From assembly GCA_026110335.1 (NCBI GenBank), contig GCA_026110335.1_3055.1: a DNA stretch of 64,000 nucleotides, one strand, 5' to 3'. Below the pieces are notes generated by a model. It had not been told where the DNA came from. It saw only the letters and a list, made by a program, of their open reading frames with translations, and searched no databases. The position numbers and the translations under genes were made by a program. The number at the start of each line of letters is the position of its first letter. The first letter of the stretch is position 1. This DNA is from a phage. This document shows, piece after piece, positions 12,765 to 42,104 of this stretch.

Positions 12765-15700
12765 ATGGCTACTTTAAAACAAATACAATTTAAAAGAAGC
12801 AAAACTGCAGGAGCACGTCCTGCCGCTTCAGTATTAGCCGAAGGTGAATTGGCTATAAACTTAAAAGACCGCGTACTTTTTACTAAAGATGACCAAGGAA
12901 ATATTATTGATCTGGGTTTTGCTAAAGGCGGTAGTATTGACGGGAATGTTATTCATACAGGTAATTATAACCAAACCGGCGATTATACTTTAAATGGCAC
13001 CTTCACTCAGACAGGTAATTTTAATTTAACTGGTATTGCTCGAGTAACTCGCGATATTATTGCCGCTGGGCAGATTATGACTGAGGGCGGAGAACTTATT
13101 ACAAAAAGCTCAGGTACAGCGCATGTTCGTTTTTTCGATAACAATAGCCGCGAACGTGGAATCATTTATACCCCGGCCAATGATGGTTTAACTACACAAG
13201 TACTTAATATCAGGGTTCAAGACTACGCCGCTGGTGATGAAAGCACCTATGCATTTTCGGGCAGTGGCCTATTTACTTCACCTGAAGTATCAGCATGGAA
13301 ATCTATTTCGTCTCCACAAATTCTGACCAACAAAGTCATTACAAATGGGAAGAAGACCGGCGATTATGACATTTATTCATTATCAAATAACACTCCAATG
13401 GCAGAAGGCGAAACGGCTATTAACCACCTCCGTGTTATGCGAAATGCTGTAGGAGCAGGTATTTTCCACGAAGTTAATGTTAATGACGGAATAACCTGGT
13501 ATTCCGGAGATGGCTTAGACACTTATCTTTGGTCGTTTAACTGGGCCGGTGGATTGAAAGCAGGCCATTCTATTTCTATAGGTCTTCCGGGTGGCTCTAA
13601 AGGATATTCTGAATTAGGGACTGCCTCAATTGTTCTTGGGGATAATGATACCGGATTTAAATGGCATCAGGACGGATATTATTTCAGCGTTAATAATGGA
13701 ACAAAAACGTTTTTATTTAGTCCCAGCGAAACAACTAGCCTAAGAAAATTTGTAGCTGGATATTCTACTAACGGAACCGATTTAACTACTCCTCCAACTG
13801 AAAACTATGCTTTGGCCACTGTTGTTACTTACCATGATAATAACGCGTTTGGAGACGGTCAGACTCTTTTAGGATATTATCAAGGTGGTAATTATCATCA
13901 TTATTTCCGCGGTAAGGGTACTACAAACATTAATACTCACGGTGGTTTGTTAGTTACTCCTGGTAATATTGACGTTATTGGTGGTTCTGTTAATATTGAT
14001 GGTCGTAATAATTCTTCTACGCTGTTGTTTAGAGGTAACACGACCGGAGCTAGTTCAGTTGATAATATGACAATTTCCGTTTGGGGCAATACGTTTACTA
14101 ATCCTAGTGTAGGTAATCGTAAAAACGTCATGGAAATTTCTGACGCAACTAGTTGGATGAGCTATATTCAAAGACTTACAACAGGTGAAGTAGAAATGAA
14201 CGTTAACGGTTCATTTGAATCATCTGGTGTTACTGCTGGAAATAGAGGAGTTCACACAACAGGCGAAATTTCATCTGGAGCAGTGAATGCGCTTCGTATT
14301 TGGAATGCAGATTATGGAGCTATTTTTAGACGTTCAGAAGGTAGTCTTCATATTATTCCAACTGCTTACGGTGAAGGTAAACATGGTGATATCGGTCCAC
14401 TTCGCCCGTTTAGTATGGCTTTAGATACCGGTAAAGTTACTATTCCAGATTTACAATCAAGTTACAATACGTTTGCTGCTAACGGTTATATTAAATTTGC
14501 TGGTCATGGAGCGGGTGCCGGCGGTTATGCTATTCAATATGTTCAAGCAGCTCCTATTTTCCAGGAAATCGATGATGATGCTGTAAGCAAATATTATCCT
14601 ATTGTTAAACAGAAGTTTTTAAACGGTAAAGCTGTCTGGTCTTTAGGTACTGAAATTAATTCGGGTACATTCGTTATTCATCATCTGAAAGAAGATGGTT
14701 CACAAGGCCATACGTCTCGTTTTAATCAAGACGGTACTGTTAACTTCCCAGATAACGTTGCTGTCGGCGGCGGTGAAGCTACTATTGCTCGTAATGGTAA
14801 CATCTGGTCTGATATCTGGAAAACGTTTACTTCAGCTGGTGACGTAACTAATATTCGCGATGCTATTGCTACTCGCGTTGCCAAAGAAGGCGACACGATG
14901 ACAGGCCGTTTAACTCTTAATGCCAACTCGGATGCTATTATTATTAACAGTGCTGCAACCGAATCTTGTTATGTGAAAGGACAAAAAGCGGGCGTTAATA
15001 ACTGGTATGTTGGTAATGGTGGGGCTGATAATGCCATATCGTTTTATAGTTTCCGAAATAATTCAGGCATAATTGTTAATAATGGTGGCGATATTGCTTT
15101 AAACCCAGAAGGGTCAGCCACTTTTAATTTTAATAGGGACCGACTTTTTATTAATGGCTCTGTCTGGACCAGTCACCAGGCCGGCGATTGGGGAAATCAA
15201 TGGCGCCAGGAAGCTCCGATATTTGTGGATTTTGGCTACGTCGGTAATGATAGTTATTATCCAATTATCAAAGGAAAATCTGTTATTACGAATGAAGGAT
15301 ACGTATCTGGTGTTGATTTCGGTATGCGCCGTATCACTAATACTTGGGCACAAGGTATTATCCGTGTAGGTAATCAGGAAAACGGTTCCAGCCCACAAGC
15401 TATCTATGAATTTCACCACAATGGAGTTATGTATGTTCCTGACATGGTTAAAACTGGAGCAAGATTATCAGCTGGCGGTGGTGACCCGGTGTGGACTGGA
15501 CCATGTCTTGTTATTGGTGATAATGATACCGGATTAGTTCATGGTGGTGACGGTCGTATTAACATGGTTGCAAATGGAATGCATATTGCTTCATGGTCGT
15601 CCGCTTACCATCTCCATGAAGGTCTTTGGGATACCACTGGTGCTTTGTGGACTGAACATGGAAGAGCTATTATTTCTTTTGGTCATTTAATCCAACAAAG

Positions 15701-36992: not shown

Positions 36993-37017
36993 TGCTTTAA
37001 AAATTTCATGGTATAAT
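36993..37017 (+). promoter_or_regulatory. canonical MotA-box middle promoter on the plus strand, antisense to modA
   Basis: aaaaTGCTTTA, exactly 12 nt, TATAAT; no plus-strand ORF downstream. Confidence 0.4.
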
Positions 37018-37034
37018 GAATCTAAGTCCTTCCA

Positions 37035-37637
37035 TTATAGATTAAATCCTTCAAAATCAAGAGTATAGATAGTATATGTTGAATACTTTTTGTACTCATA
37101 TCTATCTGCAATTCTAAATACACTTCCAGCTGGTATCATTACTTCTTGTTCATCTGAAACTAATTCCATATTACGATAACGATGGCTATCCGGAAACTTA
37201 AAGTTTGGATTGTATTCTTTACAGCGTAGAGCTTTTATAGCATACTCCTGGAAATTGAATACCATGGGAGCTTTGAATTCAAAAATAACTTGTGTGTTAT
37301 ACTCTAAACCGGAAGCAAAATGTAGAGCTATGTTTTTATCATATGAAGCTGATACGACTTTATCAAATGTAATAATATCAATTCCTTGATTTAACACCTG
37401 CTTAGTCTCAGCTGGAACACCTCTCCAAAGAGGTTTATCGTTTGGAACCAAACGAGATTTGATTATTTCATTTAACCAAGTATGGTCATCTGGTTTGTTG
37501 GTAATACAATGAATTAAAAGTTCAATTTCAGATAAATTAAACCCTTCAGAAAGTAATTCTTCACGAATAGAAGCACGCACCGATGCATCCATTGATTTTA
37601 TTTTAAAATCTTTTAGTTGCATTACTGAGTATTTCAT
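37035..37637 (-). CDS. modA: ADP-ribosyltransferase ModA (candidate)
   Basis: 200 aa; position and length as recalled for T4 ModA; paralogous to neighbour. Confidence 0.6.
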   Translation of the reverse strand: MKYSVMQLKDFKIKSMDASVRASIREELLSEGFNLSEIELLIHCITNKPDDHTWLNEIIKSRLVPNDKPLWRGVPAETKQVLNQGIDIITFDKVVSASYDKNIALHFASGLEYNTQVIFEFKAPMVFNFQEYAIKALRCKEYNPNFKFPDSHRYRNMELVSDEQEVMIPAGSVFRIADRYEYKKYSTYTIYTLDFEGFNL

Positions 37638-38257
37638 TCAACTACCTCAATATCATAAACTTTAAATGTTCCAAATGAATCGTGTAATTTTTCTTTTGAA
37701 ATAGAAGTTATTTTATACTTTCCAATTGGAATCATCCATTCTTGTTCACACACAATCATCATTAAGTTATCAGTACGCTCTGAATCTAGCCCATCAGTAT
37801 CTTCATACGTGTACTTGAACTCAGTATTAGGAGAAGAAAGTATAATATCGCTGATATGGTCAGAATAATTAAAAGCTTTATCAGTTTTTAAGCGAAATAT
37901 TATTTCAGTGGAATATTCAACATAAGAAAAACCACATGCTGTGTGCAAACTAGTAGTAAATGAATCTACTCTGTTCGTTGAAAACACTTCTCCAACTTGT
38001 AAATCTTTAATAAGTTCTTCTGTTGATTTTGATATACCACGATATAACTGATAAGGCGATTTAGTTAAATGCTTTTTAATGATTTTATTCAATTGCCGAT
38101 GAAGAGCTTCATTCTTTTTAGCTTCCATACATTGCCAAAGAACAGACTGCTCAAAGTCAGTAAATTTTTCACAGACCTTTTTATACATATCATATTGAAA
38201 ATCAACGCTTTCAGCTTTTATAGATAACTGTTCAACATCTGCAAGATTAATAATCAT
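37634..38257 (-). CDS. modB: ADP-ribosyltransferase ModB (candidate)
   Basis: 207 aa; position and length as recalled for T4 ModB. Confidence 0.6.
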   Translation of the reverse strand: MIINLADVEQLSIKAESVDFQYDMYKKVCEKFTDFEQSVLWQCMEAKKNEALHRQLNKIIKKHLTKSPYQLYRGISKSTEELIKDLQVGEVFSTNRVDSFTTSLHTACGFSYVEYSTEIIFRLKTDKAFNYSDHISDIILSSPNTEFKYTYEDTDGLDSERTDNLMMIVCEQEWMIPIGKYKITSISKEKLHDSFGTFKVYDIEVVE

Positions 38258-38324
38258 GATAGCCTCCGTATACTTCAGAAGCTATCATATCATCGTTAGA
38301 AAGGAAAGTAAACAACTTTTTGAA

Positions 38325-38507
38325 TTATTTTGCCCAGGGAGCCCAAGGCGGAGGGTCAAGATGGTATGAAGCTAGTTCTTCTAGAAGAGCATCTGGGGCT
38401 TCAATTCCATAATTCTGTAATACTATACGGTACTCTTTCTTATAATCACTAGAATCATTCTGGATATTCGTAGAATGATTATCTTCTAACATCTCAAATA
38501 AATCCAT
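38325..38507 (-). CDS. hypothetical protein
   Basis: 60 aa. Confidence 0.4.
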   Translation of the reverse strand: MDLFEMLEDNHSTNIQNDSSDYKKEYRIVLQNYGIEAPDALLEELASYHLDPPPWAPWAK

Positions 38508-38515
38508 ATTAATTC

Positions 38516-38986
38516 CTAGCGATAAAAACCAAAGTGACGATTAGCTTCAACAATCTTTCTTTCTTCTTCAGACATTCTCCAGCGTAGTCCAACATCAAAA
38601 TGAGCCCAGACCATCCTAACAAATGCATTTATATCTTTAATATCTTCAATAATGAATGTTTTACTTTTAGAAGGTTGACTCGCTAATTTAACTTTATCGT
38701 CTTCAAACATGTCAAAAAGACCATATTCATGAGCTCTTTTATAGCCTTTAATAGTTAAAGCTTCAGAAGAAGAAAACGGTGAATCAGTATTCTGCAAAAT
38801 ATCTTCAGTATGCTTTATAATTAGAATAACATTTTCTGGATATTTTCTTTCTTTTATATCTTTAATTAAAATATCCGGATTTTCTGCTAAAGGAATAATT
38901 AACGAGCATTTTTTATCAAGTGTATTTACTGATTTACCTTCTTTAGACATAAATTCTATTGAATAATGTTTTGCTACTTCAATCAT
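38516..38986 (-). CDS. hypothetical protein
   Basis: 156 aa. Confidence 0.5.
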
Positions 38987-39139
38987 GTGATTTCCTTTTG
39001 CCTACTAATGGACCGTCAGGAATTTTGTTTTCCTGGATATATTTCTCATTTTCTTCCATCATTTTACTGCCAATTTTAAGAAGCAAATCCATTGCTTCAT
39101 TTGCTTTAGCTTTAGCCTCTTCTAACGTCATATCTCTGT

Positions 39140-39343
39140 TCACGATTTATCCCCATAGATGTCTCTCATCAATTTAAGCGCTGAGCGTTCTAGTTTCTTT
39201 TCTTTCTCAGCACTAATCATTGATTTCATCCATTCTTCCGATTCGTTCTGAATTTCTTTATTTGCTTGTTCAACCCAACCATCATCAATATACATTGAGT
39301 TTGGTCTACTAAACCATTCAAGAATCTTCTTGAGAACTTTCAT
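39140..39343 (-). CDS. hypothetical protein
   Basis: 67 aa. Confidence 0.45.
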
Positions 39344-39803
39344 TTGTTTTACCTAAAACAATAGTAGGAGCATCGTCAAATTCATGAATTTTTAGCAATT
39401 TTGGATTTAAATTATTCCATACATAATAAATAAAGTATGATAAAGCATCTTCACTCGCAATTATAAATTTATTTCCTTTATCTATTTTCCAGTCATATAC
39501 TGAATCGTACGAATAAAAAGATAAAGGGTTATCATTATATTGTTCTGCGCTAACATTAATGTATTCGGATTTAGTAAATGCTTCAATTGCTCTAAACGGA
39601 CTATTTGACACAGTTTCAATAATTCCGATCTTTTTAAGTTTTATTTCAGCATCTTCTGGAACTGGCATTGAAACGAAATTTTCTACGAGATACATAGGGT
39701 TACGATAACCCTTATCAATCATTACGGCTACAGTAATTGGAACATCTTTAGCAAACGACATGCTATTACTGCTAATATACATTTCAAACAAAATCGCTTC
39801 CAT
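39318..39803 (-). CDS. mrh: Mrh-like protein (candidate)
   Basis: 161 aa from ATG at 39803 (GAGGAAAATT-ATG; track start is TTG); length and position as recalled for T4 Mrh. Confidence 0.45.
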
Positions 39804-39811
39804 AATTTTCC

Positions 39812-40153
39812 TCAATCACAAGATGTAGATGAACAGCTAGAATCACAAGAACTTCCACATGAATCGCCCGTCCATACATGAACAGGAACATTAGTGTCAT
39901 ATGAATCAGAACTAGACTGTATATTCTGCGTATTAGATGATGTAGTAGGTGGTGACCAGCGCCAAGGATTTTTATAATATTCTTGGGCTTCTTCATAAGT
40001 CATAGTAACTGCTTCTACTGTTCCATCTCCCATATAAACATACTCAACTACAGTTAAAGGAAGGTAGTCATTTGAAATAGGAACTACACCTTCTCCGGGA
40101 GTTGTAGAGAAAAAATCCGTAAAGAAACTTTTAAACCAATTAAAGATAAACAT
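39812..40153 (-). CDS. hypothetical protein with Cys/Ser-repeat C-terminus
   Basis: 113 aa; hydrophobic N-terminus '[15 protein letters not shown]'; C-terminal '[18 protein letters not shown]'. Confidence 0.5.
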
Positions 40154-40359
40154 TACAAAAAGCCTCTTTTGAATTCGACTTGCTTTTCACCATAATCATA
40201 TCGAATCTCTGCATTAAATTCGACAGAACCATCTGCGTACATCATAAATGAATGCACAACAACTTCTGTGGACCATGGTTGTAGTTCATATTTCTTCATT
40301 ACATGCCGTGAAATGATAATATCTAAATCTTCATTCGGTTTAATCCAACGATTTAACAT
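40153..40359 (-). CDS. hypothetical protein
   Basis: 68 aa; early promoter upstream. Confidence 0.45.
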   Translation of the reverse strand: MLNRWIKPNEDLDIIISRHVMKKYELQPWSTEVVVHSFMMYADGSVEFNAEIRYDYGEKQVEFKRGFL

Positions 40360-40457
40360 AGTGCTCTCCTCTATAAGATAATTCTATTATACCATACTCA
40401 TTTTGGAAAGTAAACCATTTAAATGAAAAAAGGACTCCCGAAGGAGTCCTTGAATTA

Positions 40458-40694
40458 TTAACCACCTATTGCTGTAGGCGTAAACATTGCAGCATTCTTA
40501 GTTTTCCAAGTTGCTGCATCGGAAACTACATCAGAATAAGCTGCTTTTTCTGACGGAAAGATTTGATAATGAGAATCTGCAATACGATGCTCGTTAGAAT
40601 AGATTTCAAATGGAACAGAAACTTCCATACCTTTAACTTCTTTGCCTTCACCCGCTGGATGAGTAAAGGTCTTGATGTTAACGAAACCACCCAT
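40458..40694 (-). CDS. soc: small outer capsid protein Soc
   Basis: 78 aa; late promoter TATAAATA 32 nt upstream; 'VNIKTF', 'HYQIFPSEKAAYS' match T4 Soc as recalled. Confidence 0.8.
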   Translation of the reverse strand: MGGFVNIKTFTHPAGEGKEVKGMEVSVPFEIYSNEHRIADSHYQIFPSEKAAYSDVVSDAATWKTKNAAMFTPTAIGG

Positions 40695-40725
40695 AATAAA
40701 CTCCTTTATTGTTTAATTACAGGTG

Positions 40726-40733
40726 TATTTATA
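40726..40733 (-). promoter_or_regulatory. late promoter for soc
   Basis: TATAAATA on minus strand 32 nt upstream of soc ATG. Confidence 0.65.
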
Positions 40734-40736
40734 TCA

Positions 40737-41255
40737 TCAATAACCTCGGTCTTGACGAGCGAAGTTTTCAGCATTTTTCAGATAATAAAGTTTAAAGATT
40801 TCTTCAGCTGACATTCCAAGAGCAATGAATTTATTCATGAAAAAGTGAAATTGGTCAATTAGTTCAAATTTAATTTCAAGCTGATCTTCAGGAGATAAAT
40901 CTTGAATTTTCTTGGATTGCATTTCAGAATAACGTTTCTTCCAAGGTTTCCATACAGCAGAAGCTTCTTTTTCGCCATTACTCATACCGCCAAGAGAAGT
41001 ATATAACTCGCGAGTTTCGTCTGCGATATAATCGTCTTGGTTTCGCAACCAAGCAAGAACTTCTCCTGCAGTTTCAAGTGAATCGGGATGACGATTTGTT
41101 TCTGGTTTATCATTAGCCAAACGAATCTGTAAATGCCGCTGCATATCAAGCATAACCTGCAGTGGGTCAATATTGTGCATAATATTCTCAGCATATGCAC
41201 GATTTGCTTTATCAACACCTTCGATCAAATGAGCACATTCATTAAAGTGAGCCAT
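40737..41255 (-). CDS. 56: dCTPase/dUTPase gp56
   Basis: 172 aa from 'MAHFNECAHL' (AAGGA SD; track start is TTG); MazG-like fold expected. Confidence 0.8.
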   Translation of the reverse strand: MAHFNECAHLIEGVDKANRAYAENIMHNIDPLQVMLDMQRHLQIRLANDKPETNRHPDSLETAGEVLAWLRNQDDYIADETRELYTSLGGMSNGEKEASAVWKPWKKRYSEMQSKKIQDLSPEDQLEIKFELIDQFHFFMNKFIALGMSAEEIFKLYYLKNAENFARQDRGY

Positions 41256-41315
41256 TATTTTTCCTTTCAATTCATCAATAAGTTAAATAATTATATCATT
41301 TGAATATGTAAGCAA

Positions 41316-42104
<789 letters not shown>

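Follow-up and report, generated by a model that had tools for sequence, protein, structure and literature searches.

In class Ia ribonucleotide reductase, R1 has a flexible C-terminal tail whose cysteine pair serves as a shuttle reducible by thioredoxin or glutaredoxin. Metallothioneins have segments rich in Cys, Ser, Gly and Asp, which the T4-type C-terminal tail of Mrh.1 resembles; Mrh.1 is a small early protein of T4-like phages belonging to the DUF7206 family. The R1 tail may be likened to that of DUF7206 in having a Cys pair a few residues apart at a disordered and acidic extreme C-terminus, which could swing to a partner; the two differ in that they share no sequence homology, the spacing in DUF7206 is 4-10 residues, and the tail is carried by a putative docking module of 60 residues instead of by an enzyme. 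Metallothioneins and phytochelatin-type chelators also place Cys beside carboxylates in an unstructured peptide rich in Ser, Gly and Asp, although the Cys density of most DUF7206 proteins is far lower (2 in about 110 residues), and the family has neither CxC nor CxxC and matches no metallothionein profile. In T4 itself, the mrh.1 transcript has been classed as early (PMC9697503 Table S2), and mrh.1 is one of the five T4 genes whose function is entirely unknown and for which a CRISPRi-ART knockdown phenotype has been described (PMC11879866). Knockdown with dCas13d at the mrh.1 start was scored as "Semi-Fit" and is marginal (score 0.79, p 0.069), and the knockdowns of mrh.2, mrh, srh and modA.4 were scored as "Not Fit" (PMC11879866 supplement).

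The DNA analyzed here (the window) is a stretch of 64,000 nucleotides from a phage (GenBank assembly GCA_026110335.1, contig GCA_026110335.1_3055.1). Judged by its sequence, the interval 38325-40359 of this window is the standard early-gene block of phage T4 from modA.2 to mrh.2, with no novel content. Its seven genes lie on the minus strand in the order of T4 (modA.2, modA.3, modA.4, srh, mrh, mrh.1, mrh.2; Table 1), nucleotide identity to T4 is about 95% over the interval, which is collinear with T4 positions 13198-15573, and at least 80% of it is covered in one piece by 498 of the 566 matching phage records. A preliminary description of this DNA had regarded the interval as plastic, a view that these figures do not sustain. 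In fact, the hyperplastic regions of T4 are recognized by a gene content differing from that of T4 or its close relatives, and no such difference was found at this locus; plasticity was seen between genera only, mrh being absent in Bp7 and additional small ORFs being present in Moon and F48. The same description had listed six small ORFs between modB and soc, all of which were found on the minus strand where it had placed them, and had suspected a further ORF of 50 aa in the gap at 38979-39131. This last ORF is real and corresponds to the modA.4 orthologue. As for the literature, a search on the mrh.2 and modA.x names yielded nothing but unrelated papers on magnesium, the terms "mrh.1" and "DUF7206" are absent from the searchable main texts, and the HIDEN-SEQ preprint does not mention the genes of the interval.

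The genes from mrh.2 through mrh.1, mrh, srh, modA.4 and modA.3 to modA.2 are predicted to form an ordinary T4-type early transcription unit, read on the minus strand from an early promoter that follows closely on the soc terminator. The annotation of phage fPS-90 has a "predicted early promoter" and a terminator at the equivalent places. Within this unit, the mrh.2 stop codon overlaps the mrh.1 start codon (TAATG) and AAGAGG lies upstream of the mrh.1 ATG, an arrangement by which both genes appear to be translationally coupled; the mrh.2-mrh.1 adjacency is maintained in Dhakavirus, Mosigvirus and YenM_P8. The ribosome-binding site of mrh (GAGGA) in turn overlaps the mrh.1 stop codon. The mrh ORF as listed runs from 39318 to 39815, with the ATG equivalent to that of T4 at 39803, and its product has an amino acid identity to T4 Mrh of only 79%, against 95-98% for its neighbors. 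A paralogue of mrh is found in modA.3, since both match the same Pfam family (PF24070 T4_MRH). In modA.4, whose product is identical to T4 ModA.4 in 53 of 54 residues, a GTG start replaces the ATG of T4 and overlaps the srh stop codon as GTGA; the T4 protein has been seen by mass spectrometry (MS; PMC9697503 Table S2). Finally, srh is postulated in the T4 annotation to be a decoy of the host sigma-32.

Table 1. Features of the modA.2-mrh.2 interval and of the Mrh.1 protein (positions are those of the window).
Feature	Position	Strand	Evidence and remarks
modA.2 orthologue, 60 aa	38325..38507	-	59/60 aa identical to T4 ModA.2; phrog_1647 E 2e-31; position as T4p022
modA.3 orthologue, 156 aa	38516..38986	-	PF24070 T4_MRH E 4e-38; 95.5% aa identity to T4 ModA.3
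modA.4 orthologue	38979..39143	-	54 aa from GTG, 50 aa from ATG at 39131; phrog_2681 E 2e-37
srh orthologue, 67 aa	39140..39343	-	phrog_2441 E 9e-40; 95.5% aa identity to T4 Srh
mrh orthologue, 161 aa from T4-equivalent ATG	39318..39803	-	PF24070 E 1.5e-42
mrh.1 orthologue, Cys/Ser-tailed, 113 aa	39812..40153	-	PF23836 DUF7206; phrog_2031 E 6e-36; pI about 4.05
Mrh.1 residues 96-113, tail with C99, C103, C107, C112	39815..39868	-	C103 and C112 align with the family-wide SCD cysteines
Mrh.1 residues 62-95, Ser/Thr/Asn-rich variable linker	39869..39970	-	pLDDT <50 for residues 71-102
Mrh.1 residues 33-61, conserved beta-hairpin and short helix	39971..40057	-	AF2 strands 34-40 and 46-52, helix 53-61; block-mean pLDDT 75-84
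Mrh.1 residues 1-16, N-terminal aromatic amphipathic helix	40106..40153	-	AF2 helix 3-15; block-mean pLDDT about 70
mrh.2 orthologue, 68 aa	40153..40359	-	67/68 aa identical to T4 Mrh.2; phrog_1873 E 1e-36
Early-type promoter of the mrh.2 to modA.2 unit	40386..40414	-	TTTACT-17-TATAAT, extended TG, 10/12 matches, best site of the region
Intrinsic terminator after soc	40430..40451	-	9-bp stem with GC pairs, TTCG loop, T run

The 113-aa ORF is almost certainly mrh.1 and a member of DUF7206. Its product is identical to T4 Mrh.1 (NP_049642.1, UniProt P20706, T4p027) in 110 of 113 residues (97%), with three substitutions (T68P, T78I, and A95T), and residues 3-113 match the whole DUF7206 profile (PF23836, positions 1-107 of 107) with an E of 2.4e-28 and 99.3 bits against a cutoff of 25.6. 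All family hallmarks are present, namely the N-terminal W-x-K helix, the Y-x-G-D-G-x-x-E-E-V hairpin and the C-terminal Cys-Asp. The ORF exists as first described and ends exactly in the 18 residues then reported; the accompanying remark that this Cys/Ser repeat was not recognized from T4 proteins has to be corrected, since T4 Mrh.1 carries the same 18-residue tail. Neighbors, gene order and start/stop coupling to mrh.2 are also those of T4, with no structural or contextual difference between the two proteins. Therefore, mrh.1 is an already catalogued and functionally unstudied T4 gene, present in about 500 Tequatrovirus genomes, and its copy in the window is an ordinary T4-type one.

Mrh.1 is a small acidic protein of four parts: an amphipathic helix, a beta-hairpin, a variable and disordered Ser-rich linker, and a C-terminal tail of Ser, Asp, Gly and Tyr, in which the Cys residues are set. 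The helix has a polar face formed by N5, K8/S9, T12/D13 and S16 (hydrophobic moment, muH, of 0.39-0.63 among family members), and W6, K8 and F15 are near-invariant in the family. In DUF7206 as a whole, G44, E47 and C112 are invariant, and W6, K8, E37, Y40, G42, D43, E48, V49, C103 and D113 are kept in at least 90% of members. On the other hand, the linker is unalignable between genera, family lengths range from 78 to 164 aa, and the length polymorphisms of the linker (1-3 copies of NTQ; a 51-aa insert in fPS-90, Sf24, and 235Ecol030PP) are all in frame; the 9-bp NTQ repeat was not scored by Tandem Repeats Finder. In AF2 models of both the T4-type and JS98-type proteins, N-terminal helix and hairpin recur and the tail is of low confidence, and their pTM values (0.28 and 0.25, respectively) argue against a globular fold. 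No sign of an ordered metal knuckle was given by AF2 in Mrh.1. A PDB sequence search with the family profile returned no match at E up to 1, and Foldseek against the PDB, with a query model whose pTM is only 0.28, returned none at E ≤0.001 (best E 1.2, TM <0.3), an outcome to be expected from such a model and of no significance. A beta-clamp (gp45) binding motif in the N-terminus was rejected on inspection on account of its unsuitable spacing, as were a C-terminal degron and a CaaX or sorting-signal tail, for which the matching features are absent.

The reach of the family depended on the search. A word-indexed search with the single protein sequence found near-identical matches only, an exhaustive HMMER search of Mrh.1 gave 11 matches with three usable distant homologues, and a profile search was required to reach about 130 clusters; the counts given here are those of 116 full-length family clusters. 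Low-complexity matches (P0012 and P0014) were not significant in the exhaustive full-length search; tblastn alignments do not go past residue 94, since the tail is masked by the low-complexity filter, and tails were therefore read from the fetched loci. The clusters span several T4-like genera at 35-60% protein identity, and the hosts are those of T4-like phages only (Escherichia, Shigella, Yersinia, Klebsiella, Citrobacter, Enterobacter, Edwardsiella, Serratia, and Salmonella). A scan of IMG/VR added 13 loci, all with two Cys and a Cys-Asp end, in T4-like genomes of about 155-175 kb, and did not widen this host range. The DUF7206 proteins of JS98 and Bp7 (Dhakavirus), RB69 and HX01 (Mosigvirus), Moon, Kpn_F48, PEi20 and PS2 are like the Mrh.1 of the window in the MxxW[LI]K helix, the PGEG-xVP-I element, the conserved hairpin and the Ser-rich tail ending in SCD-COOH, and their genes likewise have gene 56/soc on one side and the Mod ADP-ribosyltransferase genes on the other. 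They differ in having two Cys instead of four, and two features set many of them apart, a charged helical linker and the small-hydrophobic stretch PIVVAAAVSSW, both missing from the 113-aa T4-type protein.

The cysteines of the family are concentrated at its very end. A Cys at position -2 occurs in all 116 clusters, the C-terminal Cys-Asp in 111, and a penultimate Cys placed within SCD in 101, counts that overstate the independent support because the clusters are phylogenetically related. Exactly two Cys are found in 105 of the 116, typically in the form ...YDSGSCDSSSSSCD-COOH, and no Cys lies outside the last 20 residues in 109; in YenM_P8 the terminal Cys is retained alone. The conserved core of the tail consists of two Ser-Cys-Asp units, the second one at the very C-terminus. 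The four-Cys repeat (CX3CX3CX4C) is restricted to Tequatrovirus clusters, where C99 and C107 are specific, and is a Tequatrovirus-specific doubling of the two-Cys motif. The Cys repeat, whose absence from homologues had been named as a refutation of the first reading, gives a mixed answer: the four-Cys repeat is missing outside Tequatrovirus, and nearly all homologues keep two Cys in C-terminal SCD units. A Cys-rich tail in one sequence is not statistically remarkable, because about 0.3 stretches of 16 residues with at least four Cys are expected by chance against one observed (window ORFs of at least 100 aa, 17,209 residues, Cys 1.0%). The tail is judged real because it is conserved, being identical in T4, T2 and others and keeping its last Cys throughout the clusters, and it is very probably a selected functional module. 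The family-wide invariance of the penultimate Cys was found in no paper among the searchable literature.

A conserved and selected tail, and not noise, makes a thiol-based function such as metal binding plausible for Mrh.1, as the preliminary description had suggested. The whole locus is read here, with moderate confidence, as an mrh.1 orthologue coding for a small, docked and tethered protein that would work through a pair of thiols at its C-terminus. The N-terminal helix and the hairpin would dock Mrh.1 to a partner or to a membrane surface, and the flexible linker would tether and present the C-terminal thiol-plus-carboxylate end as the working part. Most likely, these thiols would be ligands of a metal ion or of an Fe-S cluster, which two chains, or Mrh.1 and a host protein, might share. 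This metal-binding step is advanced tentatively; a chain with two Cys at a distance of 4-10 residues, and without CxxC or CxC, does not have a classical metal site, which counts against it. Alternatively, a redox-active dithiol might engage a host thiol-dependent protein, a step that is more doubtful.

A different use of metal would be that of a metallothionein-like monomer, in which the four Cys of one chain form a tetrathiolate Zn, Fe or Cd site that buffers or steals metal. The T4-type tail packs four Cys, with Asp and Ser at their sides, into 14 residues, is conserved throughout Tequatrovirus and resembles metallothionein segments. However, four Cys occur in Tequatrovirus clusters only, there is neither CxC or CxxC nor a Pfam metallothionein match, and a four-Cys monomeric site is not the conserved function of the family because 105 of the 116 clusters have two Cys and one phage has one; the proposal is improbable.

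Slightly less credit is given to a functionless tail, a low-complexity disordered segment retained by constraint at the DNA level, through the overlap with the mrh ribosome-binding site, or by phylogenetic inertia. It is true that in Tequatrovirus the last codons (GAT TGA) plus GGA make the mrh Shine-Dalgarno sequence, that Ser tracts readily arise by slippage, as the NTQ copy variation illustrates, and that the family members are related. Nevertheless, the downstream DNA context of mrh.1 varies among genera, and the Cys-Asp or Cys-Glu end persists in Dhakavirus, Moonvirus, Marfavirus and Mosigvirus despite another downstream gene and another spacing. The codons also change while the residues stay: T4, T2, SfPhi01, KMB40 and others share one and the same 18-residue tail in spite of synonymous changes (AGC/AGT, TCT/TCC, and TGT/TGC within Tequatrovirus), and TGT/TGC and GAT/GAC alternate at the C-terminus between genera. 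Moreover, the linker diverges past alignment and the two Cys remain fixed, in a window whose long ORFs have about 1% Cys, and both the 51-aa insert and the NTQ copy changes leave the tail in frame.

An exported or membrane-inserted small protein rich in disulfides was also considered. The hydrophobic N-terminus of the preliminary description is indeed aromatic, and several Cys are present. This N-terminus, however, is an amphipathic helix of no transmembrane character: its Kyte-Doolittle mean over 19 residues reaches 0.84 at best, no hydrophobic segment of at least 18 residues and no signal peptide were found, K8 and D13 break the stretch, and most N-termini of the family comprise some 10 residues (MIxWLKNLFK). 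Export is very unlikely, and the disulfide-rich tail then proposed is itself unlikely because nothing in Mrh.1 would take it out of the reducing cytoplasm, where its Cys would be kept reduced. Highly improbable, too, is a RiPP-like precursor with an N-terminal leader and a Ser/Cys core that an enzyme of the host or the phage would dehydrate, cyclize or cross-link. The Ser/Cys-rich C-terminus is similar to lanthipeptide or azoline core peptides, and residues 95-109 give a sub-threshold NCBIfam match to an FxLD lanthipeptide precursor (TIGR04363, E 0.016), but its 15.2 bits are half of the curated cutoff of 30 bits and the match is compositional and confined to the tail. In addition, no lanthipeptide synthetase, YcaO or radical-SAM gene occurs among the neighbors in six genera, which are only mrh.2, mrh, srh, modA.2-4, the Mod ADP-ribosyltransferase genes, soc and gene 56, and conservation falls here on the core-like tail, in RiPPs the part that usually varies.

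Translation of the ORF, on which the first reading had been made to depend, is supported indirectly by its ribosome-binding site, the coupling to mrh.2, the in-frame indels and the CRISPRi-ART phenotype; against it stands one T4 time-course proteome in which Mrh.1 was undetected (Class_P = NA; PMC9697503 Table S2). This non-detection is weak evidence because the tryptic peptides of Mrh.1 (8, 53, 4, and 48 residues) are unsuitable for MS. An untranslated ORF, conserved for another reason such as an RNA structure or an opposite-strand gene, is extremely unlikely, given the strength of the ribosome-binding site, the synonymous codon changes, a protein-level family in several genera, the weak phenotype of the start-codon knockdown, the lack of any match in Rfam and tRNA scans of 37900-40900, and opposite-strand ORFs across the interval of 72 aa at most.

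A broader and improbable view is that DUF7206 represents an unrecognized class of phage early effectors, active through a tethered SCD...SCD-COOH dithiol at the C-terminus, whose motif the T4 lineage would have doubled. The dithiol of such effectors could be a decoy substrate capturing host thioredoxin or glutaredoxin, an Fe-S or Zn center to which two chains, or Mrh.1 and a host protein, contribute, or a peptide modified post-translationally by a host enzyme. The analysis offers an explanation for the failure of tryptic proteomics to find Mrh.1, and it provides an experimental handle on the protein in C103 and C112 (T4 numbering), the terminal Cys-Asp and the modular model of dock, tether and thiol end. 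In biological terms, Mrh.1 would be an accessory host-takeover factor particular to T4-like phages of Enterobacterales, non-essential and of small fitness value.

The 113-aa ORF with a Cys/Ser-rich C-terminus located between modB and soc is, as judged from its sequence, the orthologue of T4 Mrh.1. In fact, translation of T4 14685–15026 gives 113 aa, identical to the window protein at 110/113 positions and throughout the 18-residue tail, and the window protein matches the whole Pfam profile of the Mrh.1 family (PF23836, DUF7206; 99.3 bits) and also PHROG 2031. The preliminary description gave this tail exactly ([18 protein letters not shown]); that it did not recognise the repeat from T4 proteins was an oversight rather than a discovery, since the same tail is present in T4 Mrh.1. 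The gene is not new: it is on record both as an annotated T4 gene and as a Pfam DUF of unknown function, and a literature search found no paper discussing the Mrh.1 protein itself.

Single-sequence searches returned few distant homologues, and a profile of 11 diverse members retrieved about 130 clusters of protein sequences, all with PF23836. The family is confined to Enterobacterales phages; where the source names a phage, it is T4-like and from this order. A Cys at position −2 has been found in 116/116 full-length clusters, the penultimate Cys is part of SCD in 101 of them, and the C-terminus is Cys-Asp in 111/116, Cys-Glu in 3/116 and Cys-Asn in 2/116. Exactly two Cys are present in 105/116, with a spacing of 4–10 residues (most commonly 6) among the full-length clusters, whose last 20 residues comprise 45% Ser, 17% Asp, 15% Gly, 10% Cys and 8% Tyr. 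Two Cys and the CD end were also found in 13/13 further IMG/VR loci, and one phage, YenM_P8, retains the terminal Cys alone. In the alignment, the family-wide pair corresponds to T4 C103 and C112, C99 and C107 being additions, and the four-Cys arrangement is limited to Tequatrovirus clusters; one 4-Cys cluster alone in the window is not statistically striking (about 0.3 expected). The Cys/Ser tail singled out beforehand is real, conserved and probably functional, although it is a known T4 feature in a standard interval, and what most homologues share is the C-terminal Cys pair, not the four-Cys repeat. Between genera, the Cys and Asp codons vary synonymously, the DNA context downstream differs, and the linker before the tail is unalignable and variable in length (family lengths 78–164 aa); the persistence of the Cys/CD end under these conditions indicates that the thiol motif at the C-terminus is under purifying selection and is not a product of low-complexity drift. 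Within Tequatrovirus, the linker carries NTQ in 1–3 copies (among T2, T4 and SfPhi01), and some members contain a Dhakavirus-like 51-aa in-frame insertion, the tail frame being kept in every case. For example, fPS-90, Sf24 and 235Ecol030PP encode a 164-aa Mrh.1 (compared loci L004:1501–1995 and L005:1447–1941; protein P0003) in which a 51-aa insert very similar to the linker of the Dhakavirus Bp7, with part of the 'MEE(I/V)IRQPEKAGNVG' segment present a second time, is followed by a T4-type 4-Cys tail, which points to inter-genus recombination inside mrh.1.

Features of the modB–soc interval, with amino acid identity to T4
Feature	Coordinates	Strand	Product or remark	Identity to T4 (%)
modB	37634-38257	minus	207 aa	
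modA.2	38325-38507	minus	60 aa	98
modA.3	38516-38986	minus	156 aa	95.5
modA.4	38979-39143	minus	54 aa, GTG start	98
srh	39140-39343	minus	67 aa	95.5
mrh	39318-39803	minus	161 aa counted from T4-equivalent ATG	79
mrh.1	39812-40153	minus	113 aa	97
mrh.2	40153-40359	minus	68 aa	98.5
early promoter	40414-40386	minus	TTTACT-17-TATAAT with TG; region's best sigma-70-type site; upstream of mrh.2	
soc terminator	40451-40430	minus	precedes early promoter	
soc	40458-40694	minus	78 aa	44

The coordinates rest on an ORF listing of window 37000–41500 and the raw sequence, in which closely packed minus-strand ORFs run from modB through soc and which bore out the preliminary description of the ORFs and of the 113-aa tail. 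Its six ORFs and suspected extra 50-aa ORF correspond exactly to the seven genes, modA.2 to mrh.2, that the T4 reference record lists between modB and soc (modA.2, modA.3, modA.4, srh, mrh, mrh.1 and mrh.2) with equal lengths. The extra ORF is real: it is modA.4, which starts (39141–39143) with GTG in the window phage versus ATG in T4, and this GTG and the srh stop overlap in GTGA, which keeps translational coupling intact. ModA.3 is a T4_MRH-family paralogue of Mrh by Pfam match. In many deposited genomes (e.g., OR539220.1, MT515751.1) modA.2, modA.3 and modA.4 are labeled 'molybdenum ABC transporter, periplasmic molybdenum-binding protein ModA', an annotation error spread through the name clash with bacterial modA. 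A 41-aa GTG ORF (40340–40465, minus strand) covers the soc terminator and early promoter, and SfPhi01 has a counterpart annotated as hypothetical protein (gene_61). The ORF probably results from spurious gene calling in regulatory DNA.

Relative to T4 and the genus, the interval is not plastic, contrary to the earlier proposal: it contains the same genes as T4, collinear by pairwise DNA alignment (mean 95%), and megablast of window 38200–40500 against 50,697 phage records gave 566 matching records, 498/566 spanning at least 80% in one piece and nearly all of them Tequatrovirus (top match 97.8% identity). Low identity to T4 is confined to mrh and soc amid flanking genes at 95–98%, which indicates local mosaic replacement. 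The segF homing-endonuclease gene, found in T4 between soc and gene 56, is absent from the window. Between genera, variation among the compared loci is moderate: mrh is missing in Bp7 and YenM_P8, Moon and F48 have additional small ORFs, and PS2 lacks nearly all interval genes apart from the DUF7206 gene, which, being retained in the most distant genomes, is the interval's most persistent member. In such genomes (L013, Serratia phage PS2, 3001–4018; L012, 3001–4917) a Mod ADP-ribosyltransferase gene lies downstream of it in the same orientation, immediately so in PS2, where mrh, srh, modA.2–4 and soc are absent.

Regarding expression, the annotation of phage fPS-90 places an early promoter at the position matching that of the window. 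The mrh.1 ATG, preceded by AAGAGG, overlaps the mrh.2 stop (TAATG), mrh.1 being translationally coupled to mrh.2, and the mrh Shine-Dalgarno sequence contains the mrh.1 stop. In time-resolved omics of T4, the mrh.1 transcript is early and Mrh.1 was undetected, Mrh.2, Mrh, Srh and ModA.4 being detected (PMC9697503, Table S2); this absence is uninformative because the tryptic peptides of Mrh.1 are 8, 53, 4 and 48 residues long. Knockdown of T4 mrh.1 has a weak fitness effect: in the CRISPRi-ART dCas13d screen it was 'Semi-Fit' (score 0.79, p 0.069), its neighbours 'Not Fit', and mrh.1 is one of five semi-fit genes that the authors list as having a purely unknown function (PMC11879866, supplement). 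Another signal is a 19-bp hairpin spanning the modA.2–modB spacer and modB start (38255–38312, minus strand; dG −22.3 kcal/mol; z −3.76; 0/200 shuffles as stable), identical in T4, which sequesters both the Shine-Dalgarno sequence and the AUG of modB. Because a promoter-like site (TTTACT-17-TATGAT with TG) lies across the 5' arm of the hairpin, RNAs begun at this site would be without that arm and leave the ribosome-binding site accessible, similar to the promoter-dependent translational unmasking that is a known theme in T4.

Mrh.1 is modular, with putative docking elements, a tether and a conserved thiol end. AlphaFold2 with a 116-sequence alignment (mean pLDDT 59, pTM 0.28) gave a helix at 3–15 and a beta-hairpin (34–40 and 46–52) followed by helix 53–61, these last two with block-mean pLDDT 75–84; confidence is low past about residue 70 (pLDDT <50 at 71–102 and 104–109). 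A JS98-type (Dhakavirus) model (pTM 0.25) has the same helix, hairpin and low-confidence tail, plus a charged helix at 60–80 and a short helix over a small-hydrophobic stretch. A PDB sequence search with the family gave no match, and Foldseek with the model no significant one. The protein is acidic (pI about 4.05), its N-terminal helix is amphipathic (muH 0.39–0.63), and by hydropathy no segment reaches transmembrane hydrophobicity. A start of the M-x(1-9)-W-[IL]-K type is common to Mrh.2 (MLNRWIKPN), Mrh.1 (MIxWLKNLF) and extra ORFs of Moon and F48 (L009:2068–2268, L011:2331–2504), and may reflect chance or a shared docking motif.

The terminal 'SCD...SCD-COOH' would be the working end of Mrh.1, where a flexible arm would set thiols beside carboxylates. 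Tentatively, the tail could be a ligand for a metal ion or an Fe-S cluster, which two chains, or one chain and a host protein, might share. Somewhat less probably, it could act as a redox-active dithiol engaging a host thiol-dependent protein, by analogy with the Cys pair at the C-terminus of R1 in class Ia ribonucleotide reductase. The disulfide-rich tail suggested earlier is unlikely as that of an exported protein because an export signal is absent. A RiPP precursor has as its sole basis a sub-threshold compositional match to TIGR04363 (15 bits vs 30), and no modifying enzyme was found nearby. Because most members have two Cys only, the conserved function cannot be that of a monomeric metallothionein-like site. 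Finally, the conserved dithiol at the C-terminus could, with low probability, be the mark of a new type of phage effector.
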